Below, piece by piece: positions 44,306 to 56,262 of a stretch of 64,000 nucleotides of DNA. This DNA is from an uncultured Bacteroidales bacterium (lineage in GTDB: Bacteria > Bacteroidota > Bacteroidia > Bacteroidales > Paludibacteraceae). The stretch is taken from positions 41,378-105,377 of the forward strand of contig CAMUYI010000003.1 in assembly GCA_947164985.1 (NCBI GenBank). The letters run 5' to 3'. Position 1 is the stretch's first letter. Each line of letters opens with the position of its first letter. Below the pieces are notes generated by a model. It was given only the letters and a program-made list of their open reading frames with translations, was not told where the DNA came from and ran no database searches. The position numbers were made by a program, and so were the translations under genes.

Positions 44306-44461
44306 TTACAATTGTATGTCCGTTGTTGCGTTCGGAGTAAAGGTCGAAAGGGGTATGCCCGGTTCAGGTGTACTGCCTCCACCTCCGCTAGCGCAGAGCG
44401 TTTGAATCATTTCCAGTTCCGTTACCTTGACGGATGGCTGTACATAAATATATTTTTTCAT
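44306..44461 (-). CDS. Small ORF (51 aa) with strong Shine-Dalgarno: MKKYIYVQPSVKVTELEMIQTLCASGGGGSTPEPGIPLSTFTPNATTDIQL
   Basis: Too short for the ORF track; hand-translated. AAGGAGGA lies 7 nt upstream of the ATG, 43 nt downstream of the giant gene stop and upstream of the terminator. Confidence 0.5.
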   Translation of the reverse strand: MKKYIYVQPSVKVTELEMIQTLCASGGGGSTPEPGIPLSTFTPNATTDIQL

Positions 44462-44504: not shown

Positions 44505-47500
44505 TTAATGAAGTTTTTGACCTTGTGCGTTATACTCTTTGCCGTCTTTGATGATAATCAACTGGCCGTCACGAATAACCTTTGTACATTGTACCTTGTC
44601 ACTTTGTACATTCTCTACATCTGTAGGCTCATTTTTATGTTTGAAAACAAAGCGTGCGGGCGCGTTGTTAGGACCGGAAGGAGCATCATAAATCAAGTAT
44701 GCTTTGTGTGCGCCAAGGGTTGCTCCTGTATATTGGTACATACCCATGCCTACATATAGGTTGCCTCCGATATTGGCTTGCCTGTTGAGCACATAGACAT
44801 TTTCGCCATTATTGCCTACACTGGTTCTTGGGATGTCCACATCTGTACCGACAAGGTCATTACGACCATCATACAGAGGAGCAGTATTACCCGTCGGAAC
44901 CAAACGATAGGTCGGGGTCTCCGATTCGAGTACAACCGCTGTTCCGCGAGGCAGAACCATTCCATCGAAAGCGACAGGACTCAGTATGAAAGTACCGTTC
45001 TCTACATAACCTGCATGCGCCCATACGCTCGGTGGCATCAAGTAGTCGGTTTCGCTATCGTAGAAAGTACGATAGTAGCGACTTGCATGATTCGGGTCTT
45101 CTGATGCAGTAACATCTATATCAAGGATTTCACCCTCAACCATACACTCAGCCCACGCCGGAGCCCATTCTTGATAGTACGCCAATGTGCCTTTGGGAAC
45201 ACAAATCTTGGTTTCGCCGCTGGCAGCCGTCTTGAACTCTGCACCTACATTGGCATCTGCCCAAGTAACTGTTCCTCTCGGGTCGTCCCACAGGAATTGT
45301 ACAGTCTCCACACCTGTGCAGTTCAAGAATGCACCGGATTCGATAGATTTCACAGCCTGCGGTATCATTACCATGTAGAAACGTGTGCTGTCCTTGTATG
45401 CATTCTCACCGATACCGGTTACTTTATATTCCTGATACAAATAAGTTATTTCCTCCGGGATAACCAGTCTGCCATAACGTGTAGCAGGATAGATATCATT
45501 TACAGCTGCGCTGTACGGCAGTACCTTTGCCTCTTTAACAGGCGATACAGAAGAAACGGCATACCAGTTGGTTGTCATCTGATTGTGCCAGAAGAATTCC
45601 TCACCGATAGCGGGGGCTTCCCACATAGAATAAATCTTGTCAGCATAGTCCTCCCAATTGGTAGCATACTTGTAATCCGATGCAGAATTAACTCGGATGC
45701 GATTCAAGTATGTGGTGCCGGAGAAGGCGTTGCTGCCGAGTACAGGAGGCAGTTGGGTCATACAATCGAAGTTAGCCATCAGTTTGCAGTCCTTGAATGC
45801 TGCGTCACCGATAGTATCCAAAACATCGCTATACCAACTGATATCGGTTATTTGGAGGCAACCATCAAAAGCGTGAGCGCCAATCTTGGCAATGTTTACG
45901 CCACCAAAGACATTAGGCAGCTCTGCCTGACCATAGAATGCATAATCATCAATCTCGGTTACATAATACCTCACGTCTTCGTCATCTACATACTCCGGAA
46001 TTTGAAGCGTATGGTTCAGATCTTGTGCCGGCAGTTTCGCTGTGTGCGCACCGGTGATTTGGTAGTATTGGTTGTATATACCAAAGAATGTTTCACCCTT
46101 ACGAGGAGCAGGAGCCGGGTCATAGAAGAACTCAATAGACGAGATGTTAGCAACATCTACATGTCCGGATAGGGTAACTGTCTCGGCAGGCGTGCCGACC
46201 CAGATAAGGGTTCCGTTCTCGCTATCATATCTCCAATCGGCAGAAAGATCATCTGCATAATACTTATAACCACATGTAATGACGATACCTGTGAGATCTC
46301 CGACAATAGACCGGAAGGTCAGGGTTCCGTTATTCTTTATGTTAATTCCGTTATTCGCGAAGAGGCAGAAGTCGTATTGGTCAGTCTTAGCAGCCGTTCT
46401 CTGCAAGGACGTAATGATATTTTTGATTACATGCGTGGTTTGACTGGCTCCGTTGTCATCGATACTCAACAACACATGGCTGACTTGACGTGACTGCCAA
46501 ATAAAGCTTGGACCGGAAGGAGTCGGGTAAACCGGAGCCGGTGCTTCTATTACGTCGAACTCAATGGAAGAAACCGTGCAAGATATATTTCCGGAGAGGG
46601 AAACCTCTTCAGCAGCAGTACCTGTCCATGTCAAGGTGCCTGCACCTTCATCCAACGTCCAACCGACAGGGAAATCAGAAATAGAATAATCGGTATTATC
46701 GAATGTAAGGACGATGCCTTGAATATCTCCAACAGAGGACGTGAATATCAGTTCTCCATTGTTTTGCATTTTTATTTTACTATTATCAAAGTAACAGTAA
46801 CCATCGTTTGTTTTCATGATAGAGGGCTTAATACCATCAATTGCAGTGCCGGGCACAACGGTATTGAAGCTGCCGCCATACAATGAAACGGTTGCCACCT
46901 CTGTTGCATCCCACGTGATATCTGCAGTGAAAGCCGGAGCAGCAGAAACAAAGGTAAACACGATGGATGTAATGTTGCTAACATATATATCATCCAAAAC
47001 AACTGAATTTGCTGGCGTGCCGGCCCATGTTAAAGTCTTCTCCGTAAGATCCCATGTCCAATCACCGGAAGTACGTCCGGAACCACCATTGGTATTGACC
47101 ACAATGCTTTGGAACTGGCCTAATTCGGTAGAGAAAGTAAGTGTTCCACCAGCTTCCAAAATAATACTATTGTTATTATTGTCACTGAAACTTGCATATG
47201 CTCCATCAGTTGTAGCAGATATTGTAGCTACGATATCTTTTAAATCTATGGCTTTTGGTCCATTATGTTCAGAACCATAAGTGCTACTGTAAGAGAAATA
47301 ATAGTTTTCAAACTCTGTGAGGCTGAGATTTGCTAATTCTTCATCATTCGCAAAATCCCATGTAACCGGACCTTGGCTAACAGGTGTCGGATCAACCGGA
47401 GCTGCTGCAGATTCCACGGTAAATTCGACAGAAGAAACATTGAAATCCATATTTCCTGAAAGTGTAACTTGATTGGAAGCCGCACCAACCCATGTTAAGG

Positions 47501-48689
47501 TAGTTGCCTCAGAGTCATAGGTCCAACCGGCTGGAAGATTATAAGGCTCCGTATATATATGATCGCTTGTGATGACGATACCGGAGATATTTCCGACAGA
47601 AGCTGTGAACGTCAGTTCTCCACTATTATTATTCATCCACAGGTCTCTATTTGTAAATGAGCAGTTGCCGCCTGAGGCTATTCGCCTGAGCGATGCGGTA
47701 ATACCATCTATTTCCTCTGATGTTGCAACATCATCTACGTTCTCGCAATTCAAAGAAATCGAGCTTACTTCTTCTGTGTCCCATGTAACAGTTGTTGTAG
47801 TTACAACCGGAGCCGGAGCAGAAGCGTCTATGATAAACTCAATGGAAGATACCATGAAATCGATACCTCCCGAAAGAATAACCTCATTGGAAGCAGTACC
47901 TTCCCACGTTAAGGTGTTTGCCTCTCCATTAAACGTCCAACCTCCTGAGAGGTCGTAATGATTCCACACTGTGCCGCATGTGATTACAATACTTATGATA
48001 TTTCCGACAGAGGAAGTGAATGTAACTTTTCCACAAGCATTACTGAACCAAATCTCAGAACCACTAAATTGGCAGGGATCGCCAGCACTTATTTTCGTTA
48101 GCGATGCAGTAATACCATCAATTTCAGAAGCCGTCTGGACTTCATCTACATTGCTGCAAGACAAAGACACCATGCTTACATCGGTCCCATCCCACTCGAC
48201 GGTGGTCGTCGGGATCGCTTCCACGGTAAACACGATGGAGGTAATTCCGTTAACATACGCATTGGTCATTTCCACCGAATGAGTAGCACTGCCCGTCCAA
48301 GTTAAGGTGCTTCCATTACTCGTCCATCCGGTAGCATAGCCGGAGCTTGTAAAATTAATAACGATGCTTTGAATCTCATACAGCGATGATGAGAAAGTAA
48401 GCGTTGCACCATTGGATGCACTGAGGTCAGTACTGTTGTTGTAAGTGGAAAAACTTGCAGAAGATCCATCTGTTGTAGCAGAGATAGTGGCTGCGATACC
48501 TTCAATTGTTGTAACCTTGGGACCATCATTATATGAATGATAACTCTCATCCCAATAAAGGTTGGTGTACTCACTGAGATAAATGGAACTTAGTCCATTC
48601 CCTGCATTCCACGTAATCGTTGTTGGCGTTGCCCATGCGCTGACGGTTAGCGCTAGGAGGGCAATGAGTAAAGTAAATCTTTTTCTCAT
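44505..48689 (-). CDS. Giant secreted surface protein (1394 aa): six ~140-aa N-terminal modules, BspA-type leucine-rich repeats, C-terminal domain and tail
   Basis: Signal peptide MRKRFTLLIALLALTVSAWA. Six modules follow in the order A-B-B-A-B-B. Each ends ..TLTW.G.....V.LSG......SS(I/V)EF. LRR region: YAFYGQ...IGAHAFDGC...IGDAAFKDC...GSNAFSG. Tail: KVIRDGQLIIIKDGKEYNAQGQKL. Confidence 0.85.
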   Translation of the reverse strand: MRKRFTLLIALLALTVSAWATPTTITWNAGNGLSSIYLSEYTNLYWDESYHSYNDGPKVTTIEGIAATISATTDGSSASFSTYNNSTDLSASNGATLTFSSSLYEIQSIVINFTSSGYATGWTSNGSTLTWTGSATHSVEMTNAYVNGITSIVFTVEAIPTTTVEWDGTDVSMVSLSCSNVDEVQTASEIDGITASLTKISAGDPCQFSGSEIWFSNACGKVTFTSSVGNIISIVITCGTVWNHYDLSGGWTFNGEANTLTWEGTASNEVILSGGIDFMVSSIEFIIDASAPAPVVTTTTVTWDTEEVSSISLNCENVDDVATSEEIDGITASLRRIASGGNCSFTNRDLWMNNNSGELTFTASVGNISGIVITSDHIYTEPYNLPAGWTYDSEATTLTWVGAASNQVTLSGNMDFNVSSVEFTVESAAAPVDPTPVSQGPVTWDFANDEELANLSLTEFENYYFSYSSTYGSEHNGPKAIDLKDIVATISATTDGAYASFSDNNNNSIILEAGGTLTFSTELGQFQSIVVNTNGGSGRTSGDWTWDLTEKTLTWAGTPANSVVLDDIYVSNITSIVFTFVSAAPAFTADITWDATEVATVSLYGGSFNTVVPGTAIDGIKPSIMKTNDGYCYFDNSKIKMQNNGELIFTSSVGDIQGIVLTFDNTDYSISDFPVGWTLDEGAGTLTWTGTAAEEVSLSGNISCTVSSIEFDVIEAPAPVYPTPSGPSFIWQSRQVSHVLLSIDDNGASQTTHVIKNIITSLQRTAAKTDQYDFCLFANNGINIKNNGTLTFRSIVGDLTGIVITCGYKYYADDLSADWRYDSENGTLIWVGTPAETVTLSGHVDVANISSIEFFYDPAPAPRKGETFFGIYNQYYQITGAHTAKLPAQDLNHTLQIPEYVDDEDVRYYVTEIDDYAFYGQAELPNVFGGVNIAKIGAHAFDGCLQITDISWYSDVLDTIGDAAFKDCKLMANFDCMTQLPPVLGSNAFSGTTYLNRIRVNSASDYKYATNWEDYADKIYSMWEAPAIGEEFFWHNQMTTNWYAVSSVSPVKEAKVLPYSAAVNDIYPATRYGRLVIPEEITYLYQEYKVTGIGENAYKDSTRFYMVMIPQAVKSIESGAFLNCTGVETVQFLWDDPRGTVTWADANVGAEFKTAASGETKICVPKGTLAYYQEWAPAWAECMVEGEILDIDVTASEDPNHASRYYRTFYDSETDYLMPPSVWAHAGYVENGTFILSPVAFDGMVLPRGTAVVLESETPTYRLVPTGNTAPLYDGRNDLVGTDVDIPRTSVGNNGENVYVLNRQANIGGNLYVGMGMYQYTGATLGAHKAYLIYDAPSGPNNAPARFVFKHKNEPTDVENVQSDKVQCTKVIRDGQLIIIKDGKEYNAQGQKLH

Positions 48690-48826: not shown

Positions 48827-48860
48827 ATTTTGTCCCTCTTTCATTCCTCTCTCGTTATGG

Positions 48861-48893
48861 TTGACCGTCGGCTCACCGTCGGTTGACCGTCGG
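48861..48893. repeat. 11-nt tandem array (TTGACCGTCGG CTCACCGTCGG TTGACCGTCGG)
   Basis: Read directly. Confidence 0.85.
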
Positions 48894-48925
48894 GATTGAC
48901 AGCACTTTTACTTTGCTTTTTCTCT

Positions 48926-48991
48926 GTTTCGGGTGTGTTTCGGGAGTGTTTCGGGAGTGTGTTGGATGTGCTTTGGATGTGTGTGCGGGCG
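48926..48991. repeat. 11-nt tandem array, six units (GTTTCGGGTGT, GTTTCGGGAGT x2, GTGTTGGATGT, GCTTTGGATGT, GTGTGCGGGCG)
   Basis: Read directly. Confidence 0.85.
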
Positions 48992-49006
48992 TTCATTTAT
49001 TTATGG

Positions 49007-49062
49007 GGGTCGGAAGAGAGCATCTCTCCTTATTTAGGAGGGTCGGAAGAGAGCATCTCTCC
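49007..49062. repeat. 23-nt direct repeat GGGTCGGAAGAGAGCATCTCTCC x2 with 33-nt period
   Basis: Copies at 49007..49029 and 49040..49062. Each contains the small palindrome gagag-cat-ctctc. Confidence 0.9.
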
Positions 49063-49277
49063 GATCAGTTCCCTCGTATAGTCTTTCGCCGCCACATGCC
49101 GTCGTTGCGAAACGGAGGGCGATTCCTGCGCAGACTGATTGTTGTTTTCCTTTTTTCCCATGTTTTCCATTCCCTATGCAAAGCATAAAATTCCTCCAAG
49201 TACGAGTGCCAAAACAGTGTCCAAGCTATAAAAAAGCACTCGCTCCAGACCGGGTGCAGCAGAGGCGGTAATAGCAT

Positions 49278-49304
49278 AAAAAAGCACCCGATCAATTCGG
49301 GTGC
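49278..49304 (-). terminator. Intrinsic terminator after the TPR-AraC gene, abutting a TACCTTTG -7 box (49304..49311)
   Basis: Minus strand reads gcacccgaattgatcgggtgc + TTTTTT. A weaker second copy of the same design lies at 49230..49257. Confidence 0.6.
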
Positions 49305-49380
49305 AAAGGTAGTAGAAATTTCTGAAAACGCTTTTGCAAAAGCGGACAGAAGTTTTACAAAATCGGACAAAGTGCCGTTT

Positions 49381-51071
49381 TTACCCATTTCCGCGGGTTA
49401 AACGGTAGTCTGATGGTGACATTCCGACGTTCTGGGTGAAGTTTCGGGTGAAGGAACTATGATCCTCAAACCCGCATCGGTTGCCGATCTCCACGACGGG
49501 CATGTCGGGGTACTGGAGCAGCATGATACGCGCCTGCTCCAACTGGATGCGCATGATATAGCGTTTGGCTCCTTCGCCCGTCAGATATTTCACCTTCCGG
49601 TTGAGGGTCTTGGTGGACATGCACATCTTATCGGCTATCTGTGTGACCGTCACCGCCTGGTAGGTCATGATCTGGGTCACCGTCAGGATCAGTTTCTTGA
49701 GGAACTGTTTGTCCTCCGTGGTCAGATATTCCTCCGTCTCTTCCGCCGGCGTGTTTTCCTGTACGGGCTCGGAGGGTGGACGCACTTCGTTCAGCTCGGT
49801 CATCATACTGCTCATCAGCTCGTTAATCTTCCTCTGTCTTCTCCGCAGCCATAGTACAGCCAACACAATAGCGATCAGTACGATTGCTGCTGTAACCAGT
49901 CCTATACCCATGAGCCGGTGGTTTCGCCGGGTCAGTTGCTCTTTCTCTTTCTCCAGTTCGTCCCGCCCGAACTCGGCGTTGAATCGTGCGAGCTGTTCCG
50001 CCGTAGCGTGTGAGTAGAGCGAGTCCTTGATCAGATGATACCGCTCCAGATGTACTCTCGCCGCCTCCGGATTGGATTTATACAGAATCTCGTATATCGC
50101 GCGTTGCGCGTACGCCTCGTTATATGGGTTGCCGATGCTTTGGCATATGTCGATGGCTTCTTTGAGGTATTCGACGGCTTCATCCTCGTGCCCCAAACCG
50201 TTTGCCGCCTGACCTCTCTTATTGAGTGCAATAGCCAGCGAGAGCTGGTCTCCTGCCTCGCGGAAATAGGGCACTACCTCCGCCAGAATGCGTTCCGCTT
50301 CTCCGTATCTGCCGAGGCTGACGAGTATAGATGCTTTCTGAGTCTGACGCACTGCCATTTTGTAGTTGTTTCCGGTGGTCGCCTCCACCATGCAGGCACT
50401 GTCGGCATAGAGCAACGCCTTCTCTTTGTGCTCCAGACGGTTTTCTATCTCGCTTGCCATGCCGAAGATGACCGCCGTCCGTGAGGGGGGGGGGTATTCG
50501 CAGATTTTGCATAGTTGATCGCTTTGAGGATATAGCCCTCCGCCTCCTCGGGGTTTCCCGCAGCCAGCAAGGTACCGGCGATCATATTCAGAGAAGAACT
50601 CATCCGGTCGGGGTCGCCGCTTTCGCTATCCAGCCGGTAGCACCGGTGCATATAATGCAGCGCCTCTTCATATTTGGATTGCCGCATACAGGTAAGGCCG
50701 AGCATGGCAAGATTGTCCGAGATGGATTTCTCGTCCGCATACTCCATTAGTTCCAGTGCGCGCAGGAGGTTCTTCTCCGCCAAGGGATAGTCCTGTTCGG
50801 CATAATACCATTCGCCCGCCCAATACCATACCAGCGCTTTCATCGTGTCCAGAGGCGTAGCGTCGGTGAAGACGACCGGCTCGTCCATGAACTGCTCTTG
50901 GTCCATGTAGGCGAAGAAATGCCGTGCAGCGTTCAGTCCCGGCTTCCGGTCAAACTGCTCCAGCAACGTGTCAATCGGCTCCGCCTTCCGGCTGGAGGCA
51001 GAGGCGGTCACGATGCACGCCAGTAGCGCAAAAAAGGTGAAAAGTGTGTTGATAGAATGGTTTCTAATCAT
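49381..51071 (-). pseudogene. TPR - TM - AraC/XylS-HTH one-component regulator, frame-shifted at a C10 tract (two ORFs: 50445..51071 and 49381..50460)
   Basis: The upstream ORF has a signal peptide plus TPR-like repeats. The downstream ORF has more TPR, a TM helix GIGLVTAAIVLIAIVLAVLWL and the AraC HTH (YIMRIQLEQARIML ... GFEDHSSFTRNF). By hand translation, 11 or 8 C would join the two frames. Confidence 0.75.
50485..50494. repeat. Homopolymer G10 (C10 in the coding sense) inside the TPR-AraC gene
   Basis: Counted directly: gtga + 10 g + tatt. Confidence 0.95.
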
Positions 51072-51219: not shown

Positions 51220-51813
51220 TTATACAACTCCGCTGAAGCCCATGAATGCCATGGCGAGGAGGCCGGCAGTCAGGAGGGCAATCGGAGTACCCTTCATTGC
51301 TTCGGGCACTTTGGCAAGGGCTAATTGCTCGCGGATACCTGCGAAGAGGATGAGTGCGAGGCCGAAGCCGAGTGCGGTTGCGAAAGCGAAGAGTGTACCG
51401 GTTAACATACCGTGCTCAGCGCCCATCGGCAGTTTCTCGGTACCGTTCGCTACGAGAATAGCTACACCGAGGATACAGCAGTTGGTGGTGATCAGCGGCA
51501 GGAAGACACCGAGTGCCTGATAAAGCGACGGACTAATCTTCTTCAGGATGATCTCGATCATCTGCACGAGGGCAGCAATGATGAGGATGAAGAGGATGGT
51601 CTGGAGGAACTCGAGTCCCCAAGCAACGAGTAACATTTGCAGCAGATAGGTAACGACGGTAGCGAGCGTAAGCACGAATACCACAGCGGCACTCATACCC
51701 ATCGCGGTGTCGATTTTCTTGCTGACGCCGAGGAACGGGCAGATACCCAAGAACTGGCTCAATACGATATTATTAACAAATATCGCAGAGATGAAAATCA
51801 AAAAGTATACCAT
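51220..51813 (-). CDS. rnfA: Rnf complex subunit A
   Basis: FVNNIVLSQFLGICPFLGVS is typical of RnfA/NqrE-like subunits; 197 aa, 6 TM helices. Confidence 0.92.
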   Translation of the reverse strand: MVYFLIFISAIFVNNIVLSQFLGICPFLGVSKKIDTAMGMSAAVVFVLTLATVVTYLLQMLLVAWGLEFLQTILFILIIAALVQMIEIILKKISPSLYQALGVFLPLITTNCCILGVAILVANGTEKLPMGAEHGMLTGTLFAFATALGFGLALILFAGIREQLALAKVPEAMKGTPIALLTAGLLAMAFMGFSGVV

Positions 51814-51818
51814 AATAC

Positions 51819-51845
51819 TAATTTACGATTTAACGATTTACGATT
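51819..51845. repeat. 27-nt heptamer-array element (sense: AATCGTAAATCGTTAAATCGTAAATTA) upstream of rnfA, identical to 22722..22748
   Basis: The plus strand reads taatttacgatttaacgatttacgatt. Its reverse complement equals the lpxA-upstream 27-mer. Confidence 0.85.
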
Positions 51846-52435
51846 TACGATTTTTTCTGCAACTTGTTGATAATAACCATCAAGTAAGCGAGGGCGATGA
51901 AGGCACCCGGGGCGAGGACGAAGACCAGTGCGCCGTAGTTATCCGGGAAGAGATGGAAGCCGAAGCAAGCACCTGTTCCGAGCAGTTCACGAACAGCGCC
52001 GAGTAGGGTGAGGGCGAGGGTAAAACCAAGACCCATACCGATGCCGTCGAGGGCGCTGAGTCCTACGCTGTTCTTCGCAGCAAACGCTTCTGCACGACCG
52101 AGGACGATACAGTTCACTACGATGAGCGGGATAAAGAGTCCCAGCACGTCGTAGATAGCGGGCAGGTAAGCCTGCATCAGGAGCTGTACGAGGGTCACGA
52201 AAGTAGCGATGACGACGATGAACGCCGGGATACGTACTTTATCCGGGATGAGGTTCTTGAGGAGCGAGATCACTACGTTCGAGCAGATGAGCACGAACAT
52301 GGTAGCCAAGCCCATCGACATACCGTTGATAGCACTGGTGGTGGTGGCCAGGGTCGGACACATACCGAGTACCAGTACAAAGGTCGGATTCTCTTTGAGA
52401 ATACCGTTCGTTAAAACTTTTAATCCGTTACTCAT
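51845..52435 (-). CDS. rnfE: Rnf complex subunit E
   Basis: NPTFVLVLGMCPTLATTTSA is typical of RnfE/NqrD-like subunits. Confidence 0.92.
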   Translation of the reverse strand: MSNGLKVLTNGILKENPTFVLVLGMCPTLATTTSAINGMSMGLATMFVLICSNVVISLLKNLIPDKVRIPAFIVVIATFVTLVQLLMQAYLPAIYDVLGLFIPLIVVNCIVLGRAEAFAAKNSVGLSALDGIGMGLGFTLALTLLGAVRELLGTGACFGFHLFPDNYGALVFVLAPGAFIALAYLMVIINKLQKKS

Positions 52436-53006
52436 GACTTACCTCCGTTTCTTCGATAATTACAACTTCTTCTTCAGCGGCTTCCTCTGTGGGTTGCAGT
52501 TGGCTGGCACCGGTATGTGCCTCTACGCCGAACTGCTCTGCGTACGCTTGGTTGACTGCCTTGAGGAATGCGCGCGACGTGATTGTAGCGGCTGTGATAG
52601 CATCTACGTCACCACCGTCTTTGGATACCTGGAGTGCGCCAGCTTTACGGCCGATGATATTCTGACCGGGTTTGTCGGCGTTCTTGAACCAATGCTCCAT
52701 ATGCGAACCCAGACCCGGAGTCTCTTGGTGCTCCAGGATCTCGTAGCCGAGGATGTTACCTTCCTGGTCAAAGCCGACCATCACGCGGAAGGTACCACCG
52801 AAGCCGTCCACCGCGGTCTCGACAGCGATGCCGTCTTCATGACCTGCGAGCACAGCCTGCTTGGCAGCCTCTTGTTTCGCTTTCTTCTGTGCTTCAATAT
52901 TACCGAGCGTCAGCATATAGACACCGGCCAATGCGCCTGCAGCCACCATCGAGATGATGACGAGGCTGAGCACCATATTCTTGAATGTACTTTCTAATTT
53001 TGCCAT
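52428..53006 (-). CDS. rnfG: Rnf complex subunit G (FMN-binding)
   Basis: N-terminal TM helix, ETPGLG and the flavinylation motif DAITAATITSRA. Confidence 0.88.
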   Translation of the reverse strand: MAKLESTFKNMVLSLVIISMVAAGALAGVYMLTLGNIEAQKKAKQEAAKQAVLAGHEDGIAVETAVDGFGGTFRVMVGFDQEGNILGYEILEHQETPGLGSHMEHWFKNADKPGQNIIGRKAGALQVSKDGGDVDAITAATITSRAFLKAVNQAYAEQFGVEAHTGASQLQPTEEAAEEEVVIIEETEVSHE

Positions 53007-53018
53007 AGTCGTACCTCC

Positions 53019-54005
53019 TTATTTCTTTTTCTCGCCGAAACGTTGCGGACGAATCTTGTTCAACAATGGAACGCAAGCGTTCATGATGAGGATAGCGAAT
53101 GACATTCCTTCGGGATATGCACCCCAGGTACGGATGACCATCATGATGAAGCCGATACCGATACCGAAGATGATCTTACCCCACGCGCTCATCGGGCTGG
53201 TGACATAATCGGTAGCCATGAAGAAGGCACCGAGCATCAGACCACCGGAGAGCAGTTCGTACGCTACGTATTGGTGCGCTTCCATGCCGGCCGGCGTACC
53301 GATCCAAGCGAAGAGGGCTACGGTAGCGATGATAGATACCGGAATATGCCATGTGATGACGCGGCAGCAGATGAGGAACAGACCGCCGATGATGAGTGCT
53401 AGCGCGCAAACCTCACCGAGCGAACCGCCCATAACACCGAGGAAGGCGTCCTTAAGAGCCGGCAGTTGATCTACGAGCGATGTATCACCTGTCTTAGCGA
53501 TATGCTTGAGGTAATAGAGCGGGGTAGCACCTGTCTCAGCGTCGAGGTAGGATGTGTTGAATCCTTGCGGAACAGGCCAAGTGGTCATCTGTGCCGGGAA
53601 GGAGATAAGCAGGAAGACACGACCTACGAGCGCGGGGTTGAAGGGGTTTTGTCCCAGACCGCCGAAGGTCATCTTACCTACACCGATAGCTACCACTGCT
53701 CCGATCAGTACGATCCACCAATCGAGACTGGACGGGAGGTTGAAGGCGAGCAGCAGACCCGTGAGGACTGCAGAGAGGTCGCCGATGGTTTGTCTTTGCT
53801 CTTTGAGCAAGAAACGGCTGATACACCATTCGGTGAGCACACAAGCGCAAACCGAGATGGCCGCCGTAATGAGAGCTCCTACACCAAACTCGATCACTGA
53901 TACCACGTAAGCGGGCAGCAGCGCGAGAATGACGAGTAACATGTTCCTGCGAACGCTGTCACCGCTGTGTGCGTGAGGAGCCGGAGCAACAATATATTGT
54001 TTCAT
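53019..54005 (-). CDS. rnfD: Rnf complex subunit D
   Basis: PAPHAHSGDSV, FGGLGQNPFNPAL and MATDYVTSP blocks of RnfD/NqrB. Confidence 0.92.
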   Translation of the reverse strand: MKQYIVAPAPHAHSGDSVRRNMLLVILALLPAYVVSVIEFGVGALITAAISVCACVLTEWCISRFLLKEQRQTIGDLSAVLTGLLLAFNLPSSLDWWIVLIGAVVAIGVGKMTFGGLGQNPFNPALVGRVFLLISFPAQMTTWPVPQGFNTSYLDAETGATPLYYLKHIAKTGDTSLVDQLPALKDAFLGVMGGSLGEVCALALIIGGLFLICCRVITWHIPVSIIATVALFAWIGTPAGMEAHQYVAYELLSGGLMLGAFFMATDYVTSPMSAWGKIIFGIGIGFIMMVIRTWGAYPEGMSFAILIMNACVPLLNKIRPQRFGEKKK

Positions 54006-54040
54006 AATTAAAAATTAAAAATTACGAATTAAAAATTTAT
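54006..54040. repeat. Five heptamers (AATTAAA-like) filling the whole rnfC-rnfD spacer
   Basis: aattaaa aattaaa aattacg aattaaa aatttat lies between the rnfD start (54005) and the rnfC stop (54041). Confidence 0.85.
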
Positions 54041-55396
54041 TTATTTCTTCTCGGCTGCGGCAGCGGCGGCACGTTCGCGGAGGATAGCGCCGACTTTAGC
54101 TTTGGCAGGACGGATACCGTCGAGCAGACGACGATGGGCAGGACAAGCGAAGACGCAGCAACCGCAGTCGATGCAGTCCATGACGTCGTGCTTCTCGCAG
54201 TCTTCCCACATCTCGAGTTGACTCATTCGCTGGAGCAGATAGGGTTCAAGACCCATCGGGCAAGCCTGAACGCACTTACCGCAACGGATACAGTTCTCTT
54301 CCTCCGGACGGATAGATTCCGCTTCGGGCAAGAAAAGCAGACCGCTGAGGCGTTTATTAGCCGGCATAGCTTCGATATGATCCATGGCGCGACCCATCAT
54401 CGGACCTCCGCCAATGATCTTACCGGTATCCACCGGTACACCACCTGCGAGAGCGATGACCTCCTCGATCGGCGTACCGAAACGAACGGAGTAGTTACCC
54501 GGTTTAGCCACTTTCTTACCCGTCACGGTCATGACGCGGCTGATAAGCGGTTTGTTCTTCTGAACGGCCTCGTAAACGGCATAGATCGTAGCGACGTTAT
54601 CCACTACAGCGCCCACTTCGATAGGCAGTGCACCCGAAGGTACCTGACGACCGATACAAGCGTCGATGAGTTGTTTCTCACCGCCTTGCGGATATTTGAG
54701 TTTGAGAGGAACGACCTCGATGCCCAGTTTGGATTGCGCCAACTTGGTCATATGCTCGATTGCATCTTTCTTGTTATTCTCTATACCGATGATCGCGCGG
54801 TCTACACCGAGAGCACGTTTGAGGATCTCGATACCGACTATGATCTCTTCGCCATGTTCGAGCATCAACTGATGGTCACAGGTCAGGTAGGGTTCGCACT
54901 CTACACCGTTGACGATAAGCACTTCTGCTTTCTTACCCGGAGGCGGCAGCAGTTTGACGTGGGTCGGGAAGCAAGCACCACCGAGACCTACGATACCGGC
55001 AGCTGCGATCTTATCGATGATCGCTTTGGGCTCGAGGGCACACGAACGGATGAGGTCCGGCGTACGGTCGATCTCCGGCATCCATACATCACCTTCTACA
55101 TCGATGAATATGGCCTGCCCAGGGGCACCCCATGCATCGGTCCAATCACCAATCTTTGTAACGGTACCACTAACCGGCGAGCAGATGTTCGCACTCACGA
55201 ATCCACCGGCTTTCGCCAGCAGTTCGCCTACTTTTACTTTCGCTCCGACTTCCACAACAGCCTGCGCCGGTGCACCGATATGTTGCACGAGCGGGATGAT
55301 GGCCTGCTTAGGCAGCGGGCACTCCGTGATACGCTGGTGTGCGGAGAATTGTTTGTTGTCATGCGGATGAACTCCGCCTATTTTAAATGTCTTCAT
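54041..55396 (-). CDS. rnfC: Rnf complex subunit C
   Basis: GIVGLGGACFPTHVKL, VNGVECEPYLTCD and two ferredoxin motifs CIRCGKCVQACP and CIDCGCCVFACP. Confidence 0.92.
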   Translation of the reverse strand: MKTFKIGGVHPHDNKQFSAHQRITECPLPKQAIIPLVQHIGAPAQAVVEVGAKVKVGELLAKAGGFVSANICSPVSGTVTKIGDWTDAWGAPGQAIFIDVEGDVWMPEIDRTPDLIRSCALEPKAIIDKIAAAGIVGLGGACFPTHVKLLPPPGKKAEVLIVNGVECEPYLTCDHQLMLEHGEEIIVGIEILKRALGVDRAIIGIENNKKDAIEHMTKLAQSKLGIEVVPLKLKYPQGGEKQLIDACIGRQVPSGALPIEVGAVVDNVATIYAVYEAVQKNKPLISRVMTVTGKKVAKPGNYSVRFGTPIEEVIALAGGVPVDTGKIIGGGPMMGRAMDHIEAMPANKRLSGLLFLPEAESIRPEEENCIRCGKCVQACPMGLEPYLLQRMSQLEMWEDCEKHDVMDCIDCGCCVFACPAHRRLLDGIRPAKAKVGAILRERAAAAAAEKK

Positions 55397-55401
55397 AATC
55401 T

Positions 55402-55821
55402 CTACAACTTTTGCGCCATACTAATGTGATACGGGAACGAAGCTTTCGGCGTCGGCAGCGCTTTGATCTTAGCGGCAATAACCGGGTCAAAGCCCTCTTT
55501 CTTGCCACCATCTGCAGCCGCAGCAGCCTCTTCTCCCTCCGCCGCAGGCGTCAGGATCTTCTTCACCTCATCCATCGTAGGATCACCACCTACAGGACAA
55601 GCCAAACCATCCGTGTTGCCTGCTTTGACACACGCTTCCGCGAAATTACGGCAACCGGCGAATCCGCATCCGCCGCAGTTAGCACCCGGTAACACTGCGG
55701 TCACAAGGTCAATGCGCGGATCTTCTTCCACTTTGAAGTACAGGCTGACCACATATAGCAGGCAAGCTGCCAGAAAGGCGATCACACCTAAGACTCCCAT
55801 TGAAATCAGAATTAAATTCAT
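55402..55821 (-). CDS. rnfB: RnfB-like subunit, short form (membrane anchor + N-terminal Fe-S domain only)
   Basis: TM anchor, then LPGANCGGCGFAGCRNFAEACV...LACPVGG. The protein ends after 139 aa with no 4Fe-4S ferredoxin repeats. Confidence 0.7.
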   Translation of the reverse strand: MNLILISMGVLGVIAFLAACLLYVVSLYFKVEEDPRIDLVTAVLPGANCGGCGFAGCRNFAEACVKAGNTDGLACPVGGDPTMDEVKKILTPAAEGEEAAAAADGGKKEGFDPVIAAKIKALPTPKASFPYHISMAQKL

Positions 55822-55842
55822 GTTTTTGATATTTTAAGTTAA

Positions 55843-56262
55843 TTATAATTTGCGAGCTGTAAAAGAGAATTGCTTCTGCAAGCGGTTTCTAAACACGCTG
55901 AGGCCGATATAATAAAGCGCGATGCCGCAGAGGGAGAGTGTTCCGACGACGGCTTCGGACCAATCGGTAGCAAAATCCAGGATGGCGATGATGGCGAGCA
56001 TCACAATAAAAGGCAGAATATACGCGAGTAGTACGGCCTTCCATGCCAGACGTTCGCGAACTTCTACCTCTACCTTGTCGCCTATTTTCATGGGCTCCAA
56101 CATGATTGCATCCATCTCTTTGTTTTGACTCTCGGACGACATACACATCGAGCGGGCTTTGCATGCCGAACAAGCGCTGGTTTGCACGATCTGCACGTGC
56201 GCTTTTTCGCCATTGATGCTCAGCACTATACCTTCATGTCTGATTAGTTCGTCCATGCTCAT
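55843..56262 (-). CDS. RseC/MucC (SoxR-reducing system) family protein
   Basis: GIVLSINGEKAHVQIVQTSACSACKARSMC followed by two TM helices; conserved position ahead of rnfB. A TATCTTTG -7 box lies at 56277..56284 on the minus strand. Confidence 0.8.
   Translation of the reverse strand: MSMDELIRHEGIVLSINGEKAHVQIVQTSACSACKARSMCMSSESQNKEMDAIMLEPMKIGDKVEVEVRERLAWKAVLLAYILPFIVMLAIIAILDFATDWSEAVVGTLSLCGIALYYIGLSVFRNRLQKQFSFTARKL

Follow-up and report, generated by a model that had tools for sequence, protein, structure and literature searches.

A variable poly-C tract in a membrane-spanning AraC-type regulator gene of rumen Paludibacteraceae is a candidate phase-variation switch

Introduction

That regulator genes can be switched by frameshifts in homopolymers is well established, for example for Bordetella and for mga of group A Streptococcus (PMC11868660). 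According to the passage of PMC11868660 that cites Stibitz et al. 1989, bvgS (vir) of Bordetella pertussis undergoes phase variation by poly-C frameshifting; as presented there, bvgS governs surface and virulence factors, and the frameshift switches that control off. In group A Streptococcus, mga is ON with C8 and OFF with C7, and reversion was seen only in animals (PMC11868660). A poly-G tract in Klebsiella pneumoniae rmpA was shown experimentally to mediate high-frequency switching of a surface phenotype (bioRxiv 10.1101/2025.09.12.675794). Phase variation described in the Bacteroidales involves invertible promoters and shufflons, for example at the capsule loci of B. fragilis (PMC10939037, PMC11868660), and in gut and rumen members of the order it is known almost only as recombinase-driven DNA inversion.

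Here we analyse a locus in which a C10 run interrupts a regulator gene. As in bvgS, the C run lies in the coding sequence of a membrane sensor/regulator, where a ±1 frameshift leads to the OFF state. BvgS, however, is a two-component histidine kinase of a proteobacterial pathogen, whereas our regulator is a one-component TPR-TM-AraC protein of an uncultured rumen Bacteroidales commensal; moreover, switching in Bordetella was shown in culture, while the present locus is known from population-level variation only. With mga, which regulates a major surface protein, it has in common a C mononucleotide tract (8-C in mga) within a regulator gene. Mga, in contrast, is a cytoplasmic PRD-type protein of a Gram-positive pathogen, and the locus studied here shows lengths of 7-11 in nature, two of them ON. 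The rmpA gene likewise carries a poly-G/C repeat in a transcription regulator, but one of another family and with another target (capsule mucoidy). The Bacteroidales inversions occur in the same order and have the same outcome, stochastic surface variation, but use site-specific recombinases and inverted repeats, whereas the variable element here is a homopolymer. Our literature search found no description of homopolymer contingency loci for Bacteroidales or rumen MAGs; such a locus in a regulator gene is of a known kind and appears to be undescribed for this order.

Results

Within the 64-kb stretch of DNA that was analysed (the window), one regulator gene is split by a poly-C tract into two ORFs:

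50485..50494, minus strand: poly-C tract, C10, out of frame, encoding Thr193-Pro-Pro...
49381..51071, minus strand: whole regulator gene (signal-like segment, TPR sensor, TM helix, AraC-type HTH), whose sole interruption is the tract-length frameshift
50445..51071, minus strand: ORF A, N-terminal fragment of 208 aa (signal-like segment, first half of the TPR region and a 13-aa off-frame tail)
49381..50460, minus strand: ORF B, C-terminal fragment of 359 aa (second half of the TPR region, coiled coil, TM, AraC HTH)
49846..49914, minus strand: predicted TM helix LMGIGLVTAAIVLIAIVLAVLWL, residues 386-408 of the repaired protein, followed by RRRQRK
49402..49638, minus strand: AraC-type double HTH (HTH_18 / HTH_AraC, residues 479-557; Pfam E 4e-21, above the gathering score)

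The plus strand reads G10 at 50485-50494, i.e. C10 in the coding sense, in the context GCGAATA-C10-TCACGG (flanks in the coding sense of the regulator, GCGAATA and ACGGCGGTCATCTTCGG). The frames of ORF A and ORF B are offset by +2. ORF A ends in AKSANTPPPHGRRSSSAWQAR directly before its stop codon, and its off-frame tail, HGRRSSSAWQAR, also terminates truncated proteins from other assemblies; ORF B starts at the invariant Met204 (MASEIENRLEH). In silico repair of the tract, by addition of one C (C11) or removal of two (C8), yields an uninterrupted protein of 563 or 562 aa, respectively.

No other G/C run in the window exceeds 6 nt; the next longest are one G6 and ten runs of 5. Contingency loci are characterized by an uninterrupted mononucleotide run of at least about 7 inside a reading frame or a promoter, and the C10 run lies in coding sequence. 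In dinucleotide shuffles of the window, however, 6 of 100 gave at least three overlapping G8 matches and thus reached the level of the tract, so composition alone was dropped as proof of its significance, which derives instead from its position and its recurrence in orthologues.

Pfam analysis of the repaired protein placed TPR_12, TPR_2 and TPR_8 matches in the N-terminal 350 aa, all above gathering scores, with the TPR domain covering residues 30-355. Matches to HTH_18 (75.4 bits, cut-off 33.6) and HTH_AraC (41.7 bits, cut-off 26.6) assign the protein to the AraC/XylS family. An N-terminal hydrophobic signal-like segment is present, and the TM segment sits inside a long helix of the structure model. 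The protein thus has the make-up of a one-component regulator with a single TM helix, the sensor being predicted to lie outside and the DNA-binding domain inside. In the structure model the tract codons fall in a confident inter-helix turn, where they would encode Thr-Pro-Pro(-Pro) between two TPR helices; because of this position, an extra or missing proline is probably tolerated. The TPR region (residues 79-344) also weakly matched Porphyromonas gingivalis FimS (NCBIfam NF053520; E 8e-7), with a score of 27.7 bits that is far below the family cut-off of 600. Both proteins are envelope sensors of Bacteroidales that go together with genes for surface adhesins, but the window regulator lacks a kinase domain of the FimS type, its output being a fused AraC HTH. 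Its way of working would be ToxR/CadC-like, although it is not homologous to these proteins: its domains come in the opposite order, and its DNA-binding domain has another fold.

An earlier note on this DNA had read the C10 run as splitting a single regulator gene of TPR-TM-AraC architecture, with 11 or 8 C rejoining the frames into a protein of about 560-570 aa. Both ORFs, the repaired frames and their translated lengths bear this out, as do the Pfam TPR and HTH matches, the hydrophobic helix and the signal-like segment, and the neighbourhood (a repeat-containing intergenic region, a 1394-aa LRR protein and a peptide gene) is as it was described.

Intact orthologues measure 558-570 aa, and the best are 95-98% identical to the window regulator. 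In several rumen Paludibacteraceae species-level lineages, orthologues carry a homopolymer at the same codons as the window. DNA-verified lengths at this site were C7, C8, C9, C10 and C11, of which C8 and C11 are in frame and C7, C9 and C10 out of frame, covering both alternative frames:

C7: L201, L202-204 (DNA-verified)
C8: L004, L215 (DNA-verified)
C9: L205, L206, L208-214 (DNA-verified)
C9 with the following TC lost: L022 (DNA-verified)
C10: the window and L200, an independent MEGAHIT contig
C11: L207 (DNA-verified)

For C8, DNA verification covers the two ON alleles listed, and the length in about 40 other TPPS or TPPA clusters was deduced from protein. Samples and assemblies behind the series include SAMEA5383937 (C11), SAMEA5383814 and SAMEA5383929 (both C9), ERZ27256811 (C10) and ERZ27279896 (C7). 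The variation spans dozens of independent rumen metagenome assemblies. Between close relatives the repeat number changes, with altered frame, while the flanks stay constant: over 5.6 kb, L207 (C11) shares 99.0-99.4% identity with L208-L213 (C9), and the tract forms the single gap; alignment of the window (C10) with L215 (C8) contains one 2-nt gap in 2074 nt, at the tract. A query made of the two predicted off-frame tails matched N-terminal fragments of the regulator gene only. The clusters of proteins with off-frame tails comprise about 29 different truncated sequences, found on about 88 contigs that stem from several studies and were built by short-read assemblers. One of these sequences is present on 29-32 contigs of up to 107 kb; these contig counts are inflated by re-assembly of the same runs (ENA, MGnify, Logan). 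In a DNA pattern scan of metagenome contigs with GCGAATACCC-N3-12-ACGGACGGC, none of the matches listed contained the regulator gene. Several lineages carry an interrupted tract (CCCACCCC, CCCCTCCC or TCCCCC), which indicates that the tract is not universally retained.

The earlier note had proposed slipped-strand phase variation, had suggested comparing the tract in related strains, and had named non-repetitive orthologues of constant length as an outcome that would speak against its reading. The opposite was seen: the homopolymer occupies the same codons, is 7-11 long in independent short-read assemblies and exists in both in-frame (8, 11) and out-of-frame (7, 9, 10) states, a sequence comparison that lends support to the proposal.

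We also considered the alternative given in the earlier note, a sequencing or assembly error, under which the genome behind the window may really have 8 or 11 C and an intact gene, the homopolymer having been mis-sized in the consensus. Indel errors classically fall in homopolymers, above all when long-read or hybrid assembly is used, and the source contig is long (294,995 bp); the C10 of the window was read from the assembly consensus, and exact look-ups of both window ORFs matched no contig record. Nevertheless, C10 was also found in the independent MEGAHIT contig, and C7 and C9 occur in many short-read assemblies from several studies, so that an out-of-frame length is a common natural state. 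In addition, the offset from the nearest ON allele is +2 rather than the ±1 typical of consensus errors, and no other frameshifted gene was found in the 64 kb despite A/T runs of 8-10; further split or broken genes were not evident there, the ORFs of 2235 and 1394 aa being intact. We therefore regard a mis-sized consensus as distinctly improbable. Given that tract length is 7-11 across independent rumen assemblies, the tract looks like a natural on/off mutation hotspot, and hence a candidate phase-variation switch, rather than a one-off sequencing error.

Population data of this kind also bear on one-way loss, in which the homopolymer would be a weak spot by accident, losing the regulator would time and again have been neutral or advantageous in the rumen, and the OFF alleles would be pseudogenes of recent origin rather than one phase of a reversible switch. 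Resetting the tract alone restored the full ORF in all OFF alleles tested. OFF alleles are found in both frames and wherever a lineage bears the tract, and almost all of them lack a second lesion. The exceptions are two C9 alleles (L210, L214) with extra in-gene deletions of 56 and 48 nt. Such deletions, together with lesions that truncate the same gene elsewhere (P0141, where the gene is broken otherwise, beside foreign DNA, on about 40 contigs, and P0171/P0172, with a frameshift upstream of the tract), fit one-way loss as well as switching. OFF alleles are, moreover, very common, and PMC11868660 cautions that, until a high rate and reversibility have been demonstrated, tracts of this sort should be termed mutation-prone adaptive variation. 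Against one-way loss stands the 99% identity between the in-frame C11 allele and C9 alleles, which implies that the tract has passed through OFF lengths or started from them. The dN/dS ratio 3' of the tract was 0.03-0.15 (about 0.1), even between two OFF alleles, with dS of up to 1.4-1.6, and ORF B compared with its orthologues likewise gave about 0.1. These low values indicate that the regulator has been functional over evolutionary time and that OFF states are short-lived. Finally, the tract persists across lineages with saturated synonymous sites, in genomes that otherwise avoid G/C runs (four runs of at least 7 besides the tract in 561 kb of related loci). Those four runs are too few to judge as further switches.

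Pseudogene decay was rejected as a general explanation on the strength of single-lesion OFF alleles and low dN/dS and was kept as a rival for some alleles; as an account of the locus, we consider one-way loss unlikely. Observations on the question of reversal comprise the two in-frame lengths (8, 11), the spread of OFF alleles over both frames and the purifying selection seen in OFF lineages. Tract changes may be reversible within lineages, and the tract may have a fitness role.

Long homopolymers can also cause RNA polymerase slippage, although G/C runs are less prone to it than A/T runs; the Shigella AraC-family gene mxiE, for instance, needs slippage on a T9 run. Programmed recoding by transcriptional slippage or ribosomal frameshifting on the C run would yield some full-length regulator alongside a truncated TPR protein in the periplasm. 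C9 and C10 alleles could plausibly show leaky expression, and the invariant Met204 lies just past the tract. Most orthologues, however, are plainly in frame, and the OFF alleles are spread over both frames, so that one programmed shift could not correct them all; for this latter reason programmed frameshifting was rejected as the main explanation, and we judge it highly improbable.

Downstream of the regulator lies a module with the following features:

49332..49369, minus strand: two 17-nt direct repeats TGTCCGNTTTTGNAAAA with a 4-nt spacer, 12 nt past the regulator stop; candidate operator
49284..49304, minus strand: conserved G+C-rich hairpin followed by a T-run; terminator-like or leader structure
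49030..49161, minus strand: conserved small ORF of 43 aa between the regulator and the LRR gene, with substitutions that look coding-like in alignment
48859..49062, no strand assigned: short tandem direct repeats upstream of the LRR gene, window-specific and not conserved in relatives
44505..48689, minus strand: BspA-type LRR (LRR_5) protein of 1394 aa, predicted surface protein and presumed regulator target
44306..44461, minus strand: 51-aa peptide gene 3' of the LRR gene, conserved in 7 related loci

The 17-nt double repeat is unique in the window (expected 0.01), is found at the same place in 31 orthologous loci and belongs to an invariant block of about 105 nt. At araI1-I2, AraC binds 17-bp direct-repeat half-sites 4 bp apart. 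The window regulator shares the C-terminal double HTH of AraC, and its double repeat of the same unit length and spacing would be a candidate site; the N-terminal sugar-binding/dimerisation domain of AraC is absent, an extracytoplasmic TPR domain and a TM helix being present instead. A second, similar copy of the hairpin follows about 48 nt downstream in the window. The tandem repeats consist of 11-nt units (three copies at 48859-48893 and three at 48925-48968) and of a 33-nt unit (two copies at 48997-49062). An Rfam search of the control region returned nothing meaningful, and a sigma-70 consensus scan is not informative for Bacteroidota. As no inverted repeats were found in the control region, an invertible promoter there was rejected.

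The LRR protein matched LRR_5 at 66.7 bits (cut-off 27.7) in two stretches, as expected of the BspA type, and combines a variable N-terminal part with a conserved C-terminal 200 aa. The regulator adjoins the LRR gene in almost all orthologous loci, and the order regulator, LRR_5 gene, peptide gene is kept down to 54% regulator identity. From this conserved synteny and the conserved AraC-like direct-repeat site, we infer that the regulator may control the adjacent LRR gene through the candidate site.

Discussion

We propose that the tract is probably a hypermutable homopolymer contingency locus inside a membrane-spanning TPR-sensor/AraC regulator of rumen Paludibacteraceae, switching the adjacent surface module. 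Slipped-strand mispairing during replication would add or remove C residues. With 8 or 11 C, the full regulator of 562 or 563 aa would be made (ON); with 7, 9 or 10 C, translation would stop 13-90 codons past the tract, with loss of the TM helix and the DNA-binding domain (OFF), so the C10 allele of the window is expected to be OFF. The regulator most likely acts on the double repeat just past its own stop codon and would through it control the small ORF, the variable LRR protein and the 51-aa peptide. Tract length would thereby switch the surface module in a fraction of cells.

More tentatively, the homopolymer may be an ancient switch that selection has kept in place in uncultured rumen Paludibacteraceae, acting on a regulator dedicated to a hypervariable BspA-like module. 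The Bacteroidales would then offer a case of phase variation by strand slippage, with states readable animal by animal from public metagenomes and with OFF possibly dominant in many samples.

If a contingency locus is indeed present, commensals would possess a second, recombinase-independent route for varying a surface adhesin-like module, and an uncharacterised TPR-TM-AraC architecture would be tied to a candidate operator and a candidate target. Thousands of metagenomes that already exist could be typed for the state of the tract, and the result compared with host, diet or phage pressure. Long-read polishing may wrongly "correct" such tracts, and genome pipelines will call such genes pseudogenes or split, as the public gene calls do here.

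A poly-C tract splits a TPR-TM-AraC regulator gene

The minus-strand sequence at 50485-50494 reads GCG AAT A-C10-TCACGG, and this run divides a single regulator gene into two open reading frames:

ORF A, 50445..51071, minus strand: N-terminal fragment, 208 aa; crosses the tract and meets a stop 13 codons after it, ending …ANTPPPHGRRSSSAWQAR
ORF B, 49381..50460, minus strand: C-terminal fragment, 359 aa, in the +2 frame; N-terminus MASEIENRLEH

Repair in silico, by one additional C or by removal of two, yielded an uninterrupted protein of 563 or 562 aa. The translation thus confirmed the earlier note's claim that C10 breaks the regulator and that 11 or 8 C rejoin its halves; the feature is real and had been read correctly, including its proposed TPR-TM-AraC architecture, which we recovered in the repaired protein:

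Roughly residues 30-355: TPR repeats (Pfam)
Residues 386-408: hydrophobic helix, with RRRQRK next
Residues 479-557: AraC-type HTH_18 domain, above Pfam thresholds

The HTH domain places the regulator in the AraC family. As far as sequence and model indicate, it would work in the same way as ToxR/CadC-type membrane one-component regulators, to which it is unrelated by descent. Its TPR sensor resembles the P. gingivalis FimS sensor weakly, with a score below threshold. AlphaFold predicted an all-helical TPR solenoid (mean pLDDT 76, TPR region mostly >85), in which the tract-encoded Thr193-Pro194-Pro195 forms the turn between helices 174-190 and 195-211; according to this model, one proline more or less should be tolerated.

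With the repaired protein as query, we retrieved hundreds of intact proteins of 558-570 aa from rumen metagenomes and MAGs with Paludibacteraceae or Bacteroidales labels. The best match was 95% identical, and members of the same 90% cluster reached 98.6%. Given so many intact close relatives, the regulator is a normal, widespread and conserved gene, and the window copy is the exception.

No other G/C run in the 64-kb window exceeds 6; composition by itself does not make the tract extraordinary, as 6 of 100 dinucleotide shuffles matched it. Outside the regulator, a greedy ORF map of the window displayed long, dense, unbroken genes, with ORFs of 2235 and 1394 aa among them, and did not contain another split gene.

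Tract length varies at one site among relatives

In protein alignments, the tract site reads ANT-PP-S/A-R in about 40 clusters of closer relatives, with TPPPS in one cluster and THPS, TSPS or TPHPR in a few relatives; distant lineages carry NN-PSR, encoded by AACCCTTC-type DNA. On the DNA level, the tract is interrupted in locus L001 (CCCACCCC) and in L002/L003 (CCCCTCCC). Comparison with related strains, which the earlier note had suggested, revealed lengths from C7 to C11 at this one site, with both in-frame (ON) and out-of-frame (OFF) lengths present.

Tract lengths in the window and at orthologous loci (L-numbers), read from DNA
C7: L201, L202-204; out of frame
C8: L004, L215; in frame
C9: L205, L206, L208-214; out of frame
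C10: L200, window; out of frame
C11: L207; in frame

The GTDB representative MAG RUG372 (L022) also has a frameshift at the same tract. We searched for broken alleles using the upstream peptide plus both predicted off-frame tails, and all matches were N-terminal fragments of the regulator gene. Clustered at 90%, these comprised ~29 distinct truncated sequences of 186-241 aa on ~88 contigs together, ending in …HGR(R/Q)SSSAWQAR… (C7/C10 frame) or …L(T/A)DGGHLRHGKRDRKP… (C9 frame). One truncated sequence alone occurred on 29-32 contigs of up to 107 kb; these contig counts overstate independence because some runs were assembled more than once. Judged by their names, the contigs come from several studies and from short-read assemblers (MEGAHIT k141/k127/k119, 'scaffold_', Logan).

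A sequencing or assembly artefact limited to the window is unlikely, as the rest of the window is clean and out-of-frame lengths, C10 included, are common among independent short-read assemblies. Still less probable, to the point of being improbable, is programmed recoding across the tract: most orthologues are in frame, and the OFF alleles fall in both alternative frames.

OFF alleles differ at the tract and remain under constraint

The C11 allele of L207 (ON) and the C9 alleles of L208-L213 (OFF) share their gene neighbourhood and are 99.0-99.4% identical over 5.6 kb, the single gap being the tract. Likewise, alignment of the window with L215 (C8, protein 98.2% identical) over 2074 bases has a single 2-nt gap, which is also the tract. 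In every OFF allele tested, an in-frame tract length was by itself enough to restore the full reading frame.

We calculated dN/dS (Nei-Gojobori) on sequences with the tract repaired, separately for segments upstream and downstream of it. Values were 0.03-0.15 in both segments, also in the OFF-OFF pairs window-L200, window-L022, L022-L202 and L202-L208, which argues that OFF states are young relative to lineage divergence and hence that OFF alleles either revert or keep disappearing and arising anew. The two main groups that carry the tract have diverged at synonymous sites by up to 1.4-1.6; an unbroken C-run has thus been kept at the same codons while synonymous change reached saturation, in genomes where such runs are otherwise avoided. 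The halves of the regulator gene are often unequal in dS within a pair (N- versus C-terminal: 0.36 vs 0.045 for L202-L208; 0.53 vs 0.19 for window-L200), which points to intragenic recombination.

One-way, mutation-prone loss of function would account for the extra deletions in two C9 alleles (56 or 48 nt within the regulator gene; L210 ~3544, L214 ~3130), which may be secondary decay of OFF alleles, and for regulators broken in other ways elsewhere (proteins P0171/P0172, and P0141, which adjoins foreign DNA). We nevertheless regard it as rather unlikely, given the in-frame C11 allele, the OFF alleles with a single lesion and the low dN/dS. The P0141 case concerns a tract-less lineage (L216-L219, 5001-5750; ~40 contigs), in which the orthologous regulator breaks off at residue 249, unrelated genes (DUF5675) come next and contigs often end soon after; this looks like a mobile DNA insertion.

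Most likely, the tract is a homopolymer contingency locus; we consider this probable. The sequences themselves show the tract and its frameshift, the series of alleles, indels specific to the tract, OFF alleles that are otherwise intact, selection, synteny and the conserved repeat site; from these we infer slippage as the cause, reversibility, the regulatory link and any adaptive value. Replication slippage would alter tract length: C8 or C11 would allow the full regulator to be made, while C7, C9 and C10 would leave a secreted N-terminal TPR fragment that lacks both TM and HTH, presumably null for DNA binding. The window, with C10, is OFF.

Homopolymers that frameshift regulator genes are established, with Bordetella (Stibitz 1989) and the C8/C7 tract of streptococcal mga among those listed (PMC11868660); a preprint describes a poly-G tract in Klebsiella rmpA (bioRxiv 10.1101/2025.09.12.675794). 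The term phase variation is reserved for demonstrated high rate and reversibility (PMC11868660); by this usage, the poly-C locus is so far a candidate. In our literature searches, we found no relevant account of homopolymer or contingency loci from Bacteroidetes, Bacteroidales or rumen MAGs, and the Bacteroidales phase variation that we found proceeds by DNA inversion. The kind of locus is already known; in this clade and this regulator class it appears to be undescribed. Comparative sequence support at population scale for the putative switching is unusually rich.

Four other G/C runs of at least 7 occur in 561 kb of related loci, too few to interpret; they include an in-frame G8 in the LRR gene of L005 (11093-11100), a G7 in the regulator-LRR intergenic region of L007 (9920-9926) and a C8 just upstream of the L028 regulator (1304-1311).

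The regulator precedes a conserved module with a putative surface protein

Genes upstream of the regulator vary by lineage, with a MatE/M20 peptidase pair in L207 and DUF3791/DUF3990 in L215. Upstream in the window, 51220-56262 (minus) resembles an Rnf-type electron-transport operon, as read from ORF translations only; this neighbourhood is not common to the orthologous loci. Downstream lie:

44505..48689: LRR protein, 1394 aa, Pfam LRR_5 (BspA-type) repeats
44306..44461, minus strand: 51-aa peptide gene, after the LRR gene

Where the flank is long enough, nearly all orthologous loci have a relative of the 1394-aa protein after the regulator and on its strand, an order kept down to 54% regulator identity, often with a ~50-aa peptide gene next. 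Across loci, the N-terminal part of the LRR_5 protein is hypervariable and its C-terminal 200 aa are conserved. At L070 (10693-13830), an LRR protein 84% identical adjoins a regulator just 54% identical, suggesting exchange of surface-protein genes between lineages. The 51-aa peptide, which has no match in Pfam or NCBIfam, is conserved at 50-64% identity in L004, L006, L014, L016, L021, L034 and L070.

The region between the regulator and the LRR gene contains:

49270-49374, minus strand: ~105-nt block directly 3' of the regulator stop codon
49332-49369, minus strand: two 17-nt direct repeats (TGTCCGNTTTTGNAAAA) with a 4-nt spacer, 12 nt past the stop
49284-49304, minus strand: G+C-rich hairpin and T-run at the 3' end of the block
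49030..49161, minus strand: conserved small ORF, 43 aa (MGKKENNNQSAQESPSVSQRRHVAAKDYTRELIGEMLSSDPPK), between the block and the LRR gene

Six loci with dS >1 in their coding regions have the block in identical form. Its repeat pair occurs nowhere else in the window (0.01 expected) and recurs at the corresponding position in 31 orthologous loci (for example, L207 5768-5805). AraC half-sites have a 17+4+17 geometry (AraC I1-I2), and this match makes the repeats, by analogy, a good candidate operator. Through them, the regulator probably controls the small ORF, the LRR gene and the peptide gene; if it acts on this adjacent module, tract length would set whether the surface module responds to the sensor. 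A second, similar hairpin lies ~48 nt further on in the window and L215. The control region had no Rfam match, and no inverted repeats were found in that of the window.

The 11-nt and 33-nt tandem repeats of the control region, which the earlier note called repeat-rich, are real and window-specific, lacking conservation in relatives; the latter is a 33 nt ×2 duplication of the small-ORF 3' end (48997-49062). Homologues of the small ORF, 42-56 aa long, occur in L002, L004, L008, L202, L207 and L208; in public gene calls, this site instead has a 60-aa ORF that runs on the other strand.
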